Positions 11,355-11,796 of a DNA stretch of 64,000 nt are shown piece after piece (position 1 is the first letter of the stretch; the number at the start of each line of letters is the position of its first letter). The notes beneath the pieces are model-generated. The model saw only the letters and a list, made by a program, of their open reading frames with translations, searched no databases and had not been told where the DNA came from. The translations under genes were made by a program, and so were the position numbers. The stretch lies in NCBI RefSeq assembly GCF_056746865.1, contig NZ_CM163382.1; one strand, given 5' to 3'.

Positions 11355-11796
11355 GAAAACCCAGTCCTTGCAAAGATGAAGTCGAAATGCGCGATGACAC
11401 ACTACTGAAAGCGGAAGGACGAGTAAAGTTGCAATTAAAAGGAAATGTTATGCATAAGGATCGGTAGGGTATTCATTTTCATTTAAAGATATTCTTGCGC
11501 TTTAATTACAAACCGCACCGGTGTTGGTGGCGTCAAAATCGCCGAGGCGTTCCCTGAAGGCCGGGGCAGCCCACATGGATGTGGGCTGAGGGCGCGTTTT
11601 ACAGGGATGTTACCTCGCGCCCGACCCGGTAGCCGCAAGGGATAAGTCGAGGGCACCGCGCAGCGGCGATTTTGTTCGCCAGAGCCCGGGGGTGCAGGGG
11701 GCGGCGGCGATTGGCCGCCCCCTGCGCGCTCCCTGCGCCAGTGACTATATGTGGCTTAACACATCAAGGAGCGCAACAGGAAGATGAATCAATATA

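Follow-up and report, generated by a model that had tools for sequence, protein, structure and literature searches.

The GC-rich block between aqpZ and lysO is the published repeat TRIP1a/RRS-lysO, in which the whole fold rather than the G tract appears to be conserved

The GC-rich block separating aqpZ from lysO (ybjE) in the window, by which we mean the whole 64,000-nucleotide stretch of contig NZ_CM163382.1 (assembly GCF_056746865.1) that was analysed, is TRIP1a (Rudd 1999), since renamed RRS-lysO, a "replication risk sequence" (Pham et al. NAR 2023, 2024); it is thus already published and not new. In K-12, it is one of the two full-length copies of a ~270-bp GC-rich intergenic repeat. Altogether, we consider it likely that the following holds jointly: the block is RRS-lysO/TRIP1a, its G-rich strand folds when unwound and leads to a lagging-strand gap, the whole ~280-nt fold is what is conserved, and the element is a dispersed repeat. 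Since three experimental papers and one population survey already cover RRS-lysO/TRIP1a (RRS/TRIP1 literature: Rudd 1999; Pham et al. NAR 2023, 2024; Li et al. Genes 2024), the finding is a rediscovery. The RRS papers ascribe the replication block to a G-quadruplex (G4) and call the position and sequence highly conserved, and the comparative data presented here bear on both statements.

The block lies inside a 483-bp intergenic region that extends from the start of lysO (11354, - strand) to the stop of aqpZ (11838, - strand). A preliminary description, made from the sequence alone, had singled out positions 11505-11760 as unusually GC-rich, and the composition is as described: GC content is 65.6% over this interval and 69% at 11520-11740, against 39-43% in the flanking intergenic DNA and 51% in the whole window. 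The longest open reading frames across the block, 57 aa (- strand) and 46 aa (+ strand), agree with its statement that none reaches 60 aa. Its placing of the block stood, its extent did not, as the copies compared give slightly wider limits of about 11506-11784. The repeat, its published parts and its neighbour are located as follows.

11506-11784, + strand: the entire repeat (TRIP1a, or extended RRS-lysO), with its G-rich sense strand on the + strand of the window
11522-11743, + strand: the 222-bp core of RRS-lysO as published (PMC11194060), by definition located 168-389 bp upstream of the lysO start codon
11688-11707, + strand: published G4-forming tract GGGGGTGCAGGGGGCGGCGG, an exact match to the tract quoted in PMC11194060
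11804-11828, - strand: aqpZ terminator-like hairpin, inverted repeat AAGGCCTG/CAGGCCTT, a neighbour outside the repeat

The K-12 RRS coordinates and sequence align with the block, which sits in the aqpZ-lysO spacer, 168-389 bp upstream of lysO and ~31 bp past the aqpZ terminator, as published, and which agrees with RRS in length and GC content too; counted from the lysO start, the published K-12 TRIP1a coordinates, 915016-915281, are +159 to +424. Window positions 11513-11784 are 94% identical over 274 nt to the K-12 copy in the yohP-dusC spacer, downstream of dusC, and this second copy has the opposite orientation, the same layout as Rudd's TRIP1a and TRIP1c. The family types of RRS/TRIP1 have been reported to be 84-94% identical to one another. 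The lysO locus of the window is 95.5% identical to K-12-lineage lysO loci and the element itself 94-96% identical to the K-12 copies; the window carries a non-K-12 allele, 100% identical to that of strains 7/2 and 118UI. Positions 11506-11778 are shared with a short allele of strain Z1323HEC0475, where they stand in the opposite orientation. About 8 nt upstream of the 5' end, E. coli-type copies have a semi-conserved T-rich, TTTAAT-like box, a candidate -10 element only. RefSeq records, K-12 included, carry no annotated feature at the aqpZ-lysO block, and scans will therefore go on flagging it.

The element folds far better than its composition predicts. As RNA, the 279-nt element reaches -148.1 kcal/mol, compared with -119.5 +/- 5.2 kcal/mol for dinucleotide shuffles (z -5.5; none of 200 shuffles as good), and folded as DNA it has z-scores of -6.05 for the + strand and -6.6 for the - strand. 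Across 26 diverse copies, 97.3% of cells are paired versus 87.4% in shuffles, and 27 of 56 pairs show compensatory double changes, a number that none of 500 shuffles attains (17.8 +/- 1.8) and that compares with 3-9 when the partners are slid. These values back the earlier characterization of the block as highly structured, and the covariation that the preliminary description proposed to look for is present. Its individual repeats are likewise real: the palindromes CAGCCCACAT/ATGTGGGCTG (11567-11588) and GCAGGGGGCGGC/GCCGCCCCCTGC (11694-11725) are 100% complementary, and the long-range inverted repeat CAAAATCGCCGAGGCG/CGCAGCGGCGATTTTG (11534-11549 and 11659-11674) is 88% complementary. In the predicted fold they are arranged with further helices in the following order.

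11528-11541, + strand: 5' arm of the long closing stem, TGGCG (11528-11532) and CAAAATCG (11534-11541), pairing with 11667-11674 and 11677-11681
11559-11565, + strand: 5' arm of the inner junction stem, GGCCGGG, pairing with CCCG (11625-11628) and GCC (11632-11634)
11567-11588, + strand: hairpin 1, 8-bp stem CAGCCCAC/GTGGGCTG with hexaloop AUGGAU (11575-11580) closed by C11574-G11581
11590-11622, + strand: hairpin 2, lower stem GGGCGCG/CGCGCCC, internal loop and upper stem, with hexaloop AGGGAU (11603-11608) closed by C11602-G11609
11656-11666, + strand: small hairpin CCGC-GCA-GCGG
11667-11681, + strand: 3' arm of the long closing stem, CGATTTTG (11667-11674) and CGCCA (11677-11681)
11694-11725, + strand: hairpin 3, formed by GCAGGGGGCGGC/GCCGCCCCCTGC around an 8-nt loop; the G4 tract runs into its 5' arm
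11726-11774, + strand: 3' domain, long-range stem GCGCTCC (11726-11732)/GGAGCGC (11768-11774) around a variable hairpin

Covariation is spread over most of these parts. In the closing stem, CAAAATCG/CGATTTTG becomes GAAAATTG/CAATTTTC in Citrobacter, and TGGCG/CGCCA is replaced by CCGGC/GCCGG in another subfamily. Compensatory double changes affect 6 of 8 pairs in hairpin 1 (helix 7), and the A-U/G-C closing pair of hairpin 2 occurs as AU in 18 cases and as GC in 8. The small hairpin (helix 10) is 100% paired with three of its four pairs covarying (CCAC/GTGG in Klebsiella, TTGC/GCAA in Citrobacter), hairpin 3 (helix 12) has compensatory changes in 6 of 9 pairs (for example GGGGGAGGA/TCCTCCCCC, CAGAGGGCGG/CCGCCCTCTG and TAAAGGGCG/CGCCCTTTA), and the 3' stem (helix 13) is 97.7% paired with covariation in 3 of 7 pairs (GCGCTCC/GGAGCGC versus CGTTCAC/GTGAACG). 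The inner junction helices 5 and 6, where part of the 5' arm (GGCCGGG) was fixed by the search pattern, are 97-100% paired and give no covariation evidence because they hardly vary. The alignment thus points to a conserved fold that combines a long closing stem with a three-way core carrying the two A-N-GGA-Y hexaloop hairpins, and that is completed by the GC hairpin that takes in the G tract and by a 3' stem.

Two measures address which strand folds. RNAalifold gives a better consensus on the + strand (-197.6 versus -181.5 kcal/mol), and wobble cells over 91 copies comprise 221 G-U/G-T against 73 A-C. The latter excess is suggestive of the + strand, as a call that rests on a handful of helix positions seen in many closely related copies of the Klebsiella type; among the 26 most diverse copies the two classes are about equal (16 G-U, 17 A-C).

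The G tract itself behaves differently from the hairpin that bears it. The window tract scores 1.84 in G4Hunter on the sense strand, its G runs being 5, 5, 2 and 2 long, and the most C-rich 25-nt window there scores -1.4 (G-rich on the antisense strand). A canonical G4, with four runs of at least 3 G and loops of 1-7 nt, occurs on neither strand in any of 91 members, and the median best G4Hunter score of the GAACGGAA subfamily is 1.08. Some Klebsiella-type copies have G-to-A changes in the tract that are matched by compensating changes in the other arm of the hairpin. G4 potential is thus weak outside the E. coli/Klebsiella branch while the tract-bearing hairpin covaries, and we infer that what evolution has kept is probably the intrastrand fold in its full length of ~280 nt and not the tract of G runs.

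The effect of the element on replication is known from published experiments on K-12. The K-12 copies are sites of RecA- and SSB-coated post-replication gaps (PMC10287960, PMC11194060), seen by ssGap-seq as element-dependent lagging-strand peaks of RecA and SSB. The G4 strand is a block to polymerases, and RRS are also active at ectopic sites. In single-molecule work, gaps arise nearly every time with the G4 strand as lagging-strand template and are fewer once the element is inverted. At least one RRS copy is conditionally essential in K-12: cells tolerate the loss of the two copies only when a 200-kb amplification compensates for it, and supercoiling is altered genome-wide. The RRS authors hypothesize that the elements act as a "topological relief valve" at the borders of the Ter domain.

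On the K-12 copies, the published work shows that the G-rich sense strand folds into a very stable structure once the fork unwinds the RRS, the block being attributed by the RRS authors to a G-quadruplex at GGGGGTGCAGGGGGCGGCGG. DNA polymerases stop at the fold, the lagging-strand polymerase re-primes downstream, and a post-replication gap of ~2 kb, coated with SSB and RecA, remains. In the window, which includes neither oriC nor dif, gene order and strands are as in K-12 (hcr-hcp-lysO-aqpZ, all on the - strand), and by this synteny the window + strand is presumably the lagging-strand template. Gap formation was measured on the K-12 copies, to which the window allele is linked by its 94-96% identity. 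A pure roadblock model, however, leaves the invariant loop sequences of the family unexplained.

The family is much larger and its orientation more variable than a published pair conserved in position, or counts of 0-5 TRIP1 copies at five loci, would imply. BLASTN searches, which the preliminary description had suggested, recovered a median of 3 matches, full or partial, per E. coli genome (range 1-10), and thereby bore out its guess that the block belongs to another small repeat family. One Klebsiella chromosome has the element in 13 places. Copies in named taxa come from E. coli, Klebsiella and Citrobacter. Metagenomes add at least 87 flanking-gene contexts, some of them the same locus split by contig ends, and at least 30 of the contexts are between convergent genes. 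At the dusC locus, the copy is K-12-like in 3408 of 5426 complete genomes and inverted relative to dusC in 2002, the K-12 orientation thus being missing in 37% of genomes; in O157:H7 strain PV15-279, both copies are inverted in a genome collinear with K-12. A GC-skew proxy for the 64 metagenomic contexts listed gave 15 for and 27 against the lagging-template orientation and hence no bias to the expected strand, a rough and noisy measure that we treat as uninformative. The element therefore appears to behave as a dispersed repeat, variable in copy number and orientation.

Such a distribution could also be that of a selfish or passively spreading intergenic repeat, i.e. a non-autonomous mobile element or BIME-like module whose fold is kept for its own spread or recombination, with the gaps in E. 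coli as a side effect or co-option. Besides the copy numbers, the many contexts and the occurrence of both orientations at one locus, this possibility is favoured by the alx-sstT spacer, which is occupied either by the element or by Box-C-like palindromes, by a gut contig in which arrays alternate with REP/BIME-like units of 117 bp and three copies recur at a period of 653-654 bp, by head-to-head pairs of divergent copies at Citrobacter-like loci, and by the near-identity across genera reported for Kluyvera. Yet no transposase, integrase or reverse transcriptase recurs beside the copies, and there are neither target-site duplications nor convincing terminal inverted repeats, filled and alternative alleles being related by replacement and not by clean insertion. 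Moreover, over 280 nt as many as 56 pairs, together with several unpaired motifs, are conserved, which goes beyond the needs of known DNA transposons, and the conditional essentiality found experimentally in K-12 argues for a host function. We regard a primarily selfish or passively spreading nature as rather unlikely.

Three specific origins were pursued. An autonomous partner gene was rejected: when ORFs of at least 90 aa within 4 kb of 134 copies were clustered, the recurrent ones were spurious ORFs over the element itself, or neighbours specific to a locus, such as dusC, lysO, alx and copA. Insertion of the MITE type was likewise rejected on comparing K-12 with O157 at yohP-dusC and K-12 with TRIP1d contigs at alx-sstT, where no clean empty site and no duplication was found and the alleles differ by replacement or inversion with unrelated adjoining sequence. 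As to a phage origin, blastn gave no match in 50,697 phage records; in IMG/VR, the core is present in four contigs.

The same distribution decides against a role in cis for lysO. The preliminary description had considered a regulatory region for ybjE, and the location 150-430 bp upstream of the lysO start would suit a leader or promoter region, e.g. one responsive to ArgP or lysine. However, dozens of unrelated spacers, most of them separating convergent genes, contain the element in one orientation or the other, and it also lies downstream of dusC, putP, alx and copA. The copy at lysO is reversed or internally deleted in roughly a third of genomes, and the sense strand is antisense to lysO. 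A lysine riboswitch or other known lysO leader was tried as a candidate and dropped, Rfam giving no such match in the block. For practical purposes, lysO regulation is refuted by the distribution of the element, and we attach next to no probability to it.

More difficult to judge is whether the conserved product is an RNA, namely a + strand transcript related to the TwoAYGGAY motif (RF01731; Weinberg et al. 2010), which would be compatible with an effect at the DNA level. TwoAYGGAY is the sole Rfam family that matches the element. Four divergent copies give the match, all of them in register and on the same strand, with 29.8 bits for the window, 30.9 for the K-12 dusC copy, and 33.5 and 32.8 for two other copies (L050 and L090). 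The Rfam search proposed earlier returned this repeated match, yet all scores stay under the gathering score of 43 (E-values 0.05-0.44). The element has the long closing P1 of the motif, in that TGGCG and CAAAATCG pair with CGATTTTG and CGCCA around inner helices, with covariation, and its architecture follows that of the published Psychromonas copies: a long P1, a CAUGGAUG-loop hairpin, a linker of 1-2 nt and a longer CA-N-GGA-YG hairpin. The Psychromonas copies are likewise multicopy with repeated flanks.

Two C-A-N-GGA-Y-G hexaloop hairpins lie 27-29 nt apart in all 117 unique members (two or more C-A(N)GGAN-G motifs at this distance in each), and 107 of the 117 have no such motif on the antisense strand. 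Loop 1 reads A-U/G-GGA-Y in 117/117 and AUGGAU in 111/117, of which 105 were retrieved by a pattern requiring AUGGAU and 6, from E. coli, Klebsiella and Citrobacter, were BLAST-derived without it. Loop 2, on which the pattern imposed nothing, is A-N-GGA-Y in 117/117 with an invariant GGA (AGGGAU in the window, AUGGAY in 17/117). An A-N-GGA-Y hexaloop closed by C-G is a textbook CsrA/RsmE site. CsrA bridges two sites that are 10-63 nt apart, and one dimer could hence bridge both loops at their distance of 27-29 nt. The CsrA SELEX consensus RUACARGGAUGU places GGA in a hexaloop with AC/GU pairing, and UUACAGGGAUGU in hairpin 2 of the window matches it at 11 of 12 positions.

Several observations stand against an RNA. 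A consensus scan of 11300-11900 found no sigma-70-like promoter and no intrinsic terminator, and because the sense strand runs opposite to lysO as well as to aqpZ, read-through cannot make the sense RNA in the window; in tandem-gene contexts among the matches listed, the element is antisense in 16 and sense in 10. In the Potts 2017 CsrA table, dusC and ybjE have 'No' in each of the four Yes/No columns, which we read as CLIP-seq peak calls, and coordinate searches of the CsrA CLIP data gave unrelated numbers only and no coordinate-level peak at the element. The stem of hairpin 1 is very stable (8-9 bp, GC), of a kind that SELEX suggests CsrA disfavours. Finally, a folded single DNA strand would show G-T wobbles and covariation equally. 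The effect seen in the published experiments is one on DNA. We consider an RNA product improbable, and folding of the unwound DNA strand stays the preferred explanation.

Somewhat broader, and in our judgement doubtful, is the idea that RRS/TRIP1 forms the enterobacterial branch of a wider TwoAYGGAY-type class of strand-specifically folded dispersed elements. If this were true, the core would be the pair of C-A-N-GGA-Y-G hexaloops 27-29 nt apart in a long closing stem, a geometry that fits a dimeric GGA reader such as CsrA, or a single-stranded-DNA-binding protein, and the G-quadruplex would be a lineage-specific embellishment of one hairpin arm. Activity, as RNA or as unwound DNA, would then depend on recognition of the fold and the loops, and it would be explained why natural populations tolerate either orientation. 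Apart from this idea, the family alignment shows the hairpin scaffold and the two GGA hexaloops to be conserved and the G4 potential to fade outside E. coli and Klebsiella; naturally occurring mutants thus make the questions "G4 or fold?" and "DNA or RNA?" directly testable.

Among known systems, REP/BIME and Box C sequences resemble the element in being GC-rich, palindromic, located between convergent genes, arranged in mosaics or arrays and variable in occupancy between strains. It differs from REP in being ~10 times as long as a single unit, in its complex fold of many helices with conserved loops and in lacking the REP consensus; it does not consist of alternating units of ~35 bp, and the 117-bp REP/BIME-like units flank Klebsiella-type copies as separate modules. 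The preliminary description had reported no REP match, consistent with Rfam, which gives no naRNA- or REP-type match in the block; the REP-derived family naRNA4 matches a REP at 4730-4767 of a K-12 locus (L005), not the element. With TwoAYGGAY it shares two adjacent A-Y/N-GGA-Y loop hairpins closed by C-G, a long P1 and multiple copies per genome, but it scores 29.8-33.5 bits against 43, loop 2 is usually A-G/C/A-GGA-Y and not AYGGAY, and the E. coli element has ~110 further conserved nt (GC hairpin 3 and the 3' domain) that are missing from the Rfam model; owing to these three differences, homology is only putative. The repeats of CsrB and CsrC likewise present GGA in a six-nt loop closed by C-G and A-U/G-C, with sites within the 10-63 nt range, whereas RRS offers only two or three candidate sites, on long, GC-rich stems. 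The pilE G4 of Neisseria gonorrhoeae, cited by the RRS authors as the sole bacterial analogue, is also G-rich, and its folding triggers a gap or nick that has a programmed consequence for the genome; yet pilE is a short canonical G4 that needs an sRNA/R-loop, while RRS, without a canonical four-run G4, is built on a large hairpin scaffold.

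The GC-rich, structured block that a preliminary description had placed between ybjE and aqpZ is real, and it is the repeat TRIP1a, or RRS-lysO, an element that is remarkable, yet already known. It lies in intergenic DNA, with lysO (ybjE; start annotated at 11354) on one side and aqpZ (stop at 11838) on the other, both on the − strand; the window has the E. coli K-12 arrangement of hcr, hcp, lysO, aqpZ and ybjD. The block at 11505–11760 has 65.6% GC, compared to 39–43% in other spacer DNA and 51% in the window, and holds no ORF of at least 60 aa, as first described. The local palindromes (11567–11588 and 11694–11725, each 100% complementary) and the longer-range inverted repeat (11534–11549/11659–11674) were likewise recovered, and the proposed strong structure is supported by folding, the 279-nt element being more stable than its dinucleotide shuffles as RNA (z −5.5) and as DNA (z −6.05 and −6.6 for the two strands). 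A further inverted repeat, TTGCAATTAAA/TTTAATTACAA (11429–11439 and 11501–11511, 91% complementary), connects the element's left edge with a site 61 nt nearer lysO and may be part of the lysO promoter region rather than of the repeat.

The name TRIP1 stems from the screen of Rudd (1999), with TRIP1a at aqpZ/ybjE, the internally deleted TRIP1b at putP and TRIP1c at yohI (dusC). Pham et al. introduced the names RRS-lysO and RRS-dusC for the two full-length ones; their definition, 168–389 bp upstream of lysO, corresponds to window 11522–11743, and their G-quadruplex (G4) tract GGGGGTGCAGGGGGCGGCGG is found at 11688–11707. In K-12, the RRS copies give element-dependent RecA/SSB single-stranded DNA peaks of ~2 kb on the lagging strand (PMC10287960, PMC11194060). 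Furthermore, the G4 strand blocks Pol I, II and IV, the element also works at ectopic sites, and the double deletion, recovered only with a 200-kb amplification, changes global supercoiling. The published mechanism, which is the best supported, is that a strand-specific fold would stall lagging-strand synthesis, which would leave a transient gap. Our comparative data qualify this mechanism with regard to the conserved scaffold and the variable orientation.

Membership in a small repeat family, one of the options considered initially, is borne out by blastn, which found 18,860 places in 5,426 complete E. coli genomes (matches full or partial; median 3, maximum 10 per genome) and, in the K-12 yohP-dusC spacer, a copy 94% identical to the window element in opposite orientation. 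Li et al., surveying 6,725 genomes, had described five TRIP1 loci with 0–5 copies, either orientation at loci a and c, rearrangements between copies and a "double-Y" shape predicted by RNAfold. Outside E. coli, Klebsiella carries related copies at 13 places in one chromosome (in a record labelled plasmid) and Citrobacter copies show 75% identity; phage records gave no match. At least 120 metagenomic loci match the core pattern, chance matches included, and three chance-level sequences were left out of the alignments. A profile-HMM search of the collected loci returned 147 matches, 12 of which lack the exact core pattern (6 near-full-length copies, 6 weak or partial). Two main subfamilies differ in their ends, GGAGCGCAA in E. 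coli and Klebsiella and GTGAACGGAA in Citrobacter-like and other copies.

Covariation in the predicted stems, proposed at the outset as a check, was found. RNAalifold on 26 diverse copies predicts 13 helices with 56 pairs, in which 97.3% of cells are paired compared to 87.4% in column shuffles. Compensatory double changes occur at 27 of the 56 pairs, against 17.8 ± 1.8 in shuffles (none of 500 reached as many) and only 3–9 when pairing partners were shifted by 1–3 columns. Covariation extends to all major helices, from the closing stem and hairpin 1 through the top of hairpin 2 and the small CCGC/GCGG hairpin to the GC-rich hairpin 3 and the 3′ stem. The + (G-rich) strand is probably the one under selection, its folding energy being favoured (−197.6 versus −181.5 kcal/mol). 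Across 91 copies, 221 G-U/G-T cells face 73 A-C cells, an excess concentrated at a handful of sites in the numerous, mutually related copies of Klebsiella type; the 26 diverse copies have nearly equal counts (16 and 17). Wobble pairs cannot tell RNA from single-stranded DNA.

Is it then the G4 tract that is conserved? No family member has four runs of at least three G. The best G4Hunter score has a median of 1.76 in the E. coli/Klebsiella subfamily (1.84 in the window) and of 1.08 in the GTGAACGGAA subfamily. The tract forms the 5′ arm of hairpin 3, in which 6 of 9 pairs covary, and in some Klebsiella-type copies a G→A change in the tract is compensated in the opposite arm (CAGAGGGCGG...CCGCCCTCTG). 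These observations thus argue that family-wide selection acts on hairpin 3, not on the G runs. Such hairpin-level selection is compatible with the polymerase-block data, and the RRS authors themselves consider that any stable tertiary structure might suffice. As judged from the alignments, what is conserved is the entire set of hairpins, the two GGA hexaloops included, instead of the G4 tract.

The K-12 orientation is also not universal, as junction-specific searches of complete E. coli genomes show.

Alleles at dusC and lysO in complete E. coli genomes (the two reversed lysO classes overlap slightly)
dusC, K-12-type: 3,408 genomes
dusC, inverted: 2,002 genomes
lysO, forward: 3,578 genomes
lysO, full-length reversed: about 1,060 genomes
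lysO, short reversed: 932 genomes

The short reversed allele (~140 bp; 17% of complete genomes; L003, strain Z1323HEC0475, 3001–3139) lacks window 11567–11683 and with it both GGA hairpins, and resembles TRIP1b. The Z1323HEC0475 record is labelled a 42-kb plasmid, yet holds the chromosomal genes ybjX-ybjD-aqpZ-lysO-hcp-hcr. O157:H7 strain PV15-279 has inverted alleles at both lysO (1.02 Mb) and dusC (3.01 Mb) while these loci retain K-12 order and strand; hence we infer that its G-rich strands serve as leading-strand templates. Among the matches listed, metagenomic contexts with both neighbours identified are convergent in 30 cases and divergent in 5, tandem contexts have the element antisense in 16 and sense in 10, and a noisy GC-skew proxy revealed no lagging-template preference (15 for, 27 against, 22 unclear).

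Alternative alleles resemble replacements and not insertions, and no recurrent transposase-like neighbour was found among the matches listed. In the K-12 alx-sstT spacer (L138, NC_000913.3, ~3548–3760), two Box-C-like palindromes (CCCTCTCCC...GGGAGAGGG...GGGGTGAGGG) occupy the exact place of the TRIP1d copy of other strains (L132, 5863–6291); the same Box-C-like sequence trails the GAACGGAA subfamily at a fixed distance. In human gut contig UPSY01001057 (L021, 1551–3500), three tandem copies with a period of 653–654 bp and 2.3-copy blocks of a 116–117-bp REP/BIME-like unit alternate in a mosaic array. In Citrobacter-like loci, a single spacer contains two divergent copies placed head to head, one sense copy per strand, with loops CAGGGAUG and CAGGGAYG.

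Head-to-head copies in L010 (also in L090, L018, L097 and L105)
3646–3899, − strand: family copy
~3990–4260, + strand: family copy

The initial statement that the element does not match REP agrees with the result that the REP-derived naRNA4 model has no match on it. A REP-type sequence in the K-12 cdd-sanA spacer (L005, 4730–4767, −) scores 31.4 bits with naRNA4, below the gathering score of 59.5. L050, a metagenomic contig with two family copies, has a P1-type C4 antisense RNA (8474–8662, −; 65.4 bits) and isrK and c4-a1b1 matches slightly under threshold, which suggests a neighbouring prophage immunity region.

Other features of the window
22238–22385, + strand: three CRISPR-DR4 (RF01317) repeats, 60-bp period, 50.1/50.1/40 bits, a short CRISPR array remnant
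22848–22932, − strand: tRNA gene, ~460 bp from these repeats
37813–37947, − strand: enterobacterial sRNA STnc130 (RF02084), full-length match, 140 bits (gathering score 55)

No sigma-70-like promoter or terminator was found for the element, and in the gene table of Potts 2017 all four Yes/No columns, which we take to be CLIP-seq peak calls, read 'No' for both dusC and ybjE. All 117 unique members carry at least two sense-strand C-A(N)GGAN-G motifs 27–29 nt apart, and in 107 of the 117 the antisense strand has none. The second loop, which the search pattern left free, is A-N-GGA-Y in all 117. These paired hexaloops have the geometry of the CsrA/RsmE SELEX consensus (RUACARGGAUGU, whose GGA lies in a hexaloop with AC/GU closing pairs), and CsrA dimers bridge sites 10–63 nt apart; the similarity falls short of proof. 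As for the structured RNA suggested initially, the only Rfam family touching the element is TwoAYGGAY (RF01731; + strand, model positions 1–168, limited to 43–114 in the L050 copy). It matches four divergent copies, with every score (29.8–33.5 bits) under the gathering score of 43. Its published description has two AYGGAY terminal loops and an often very long P1, and in the alignment the Psychromonas TwoAYGGAY shares the architecture of our element and is likewise multicopy, with repeated flanks.
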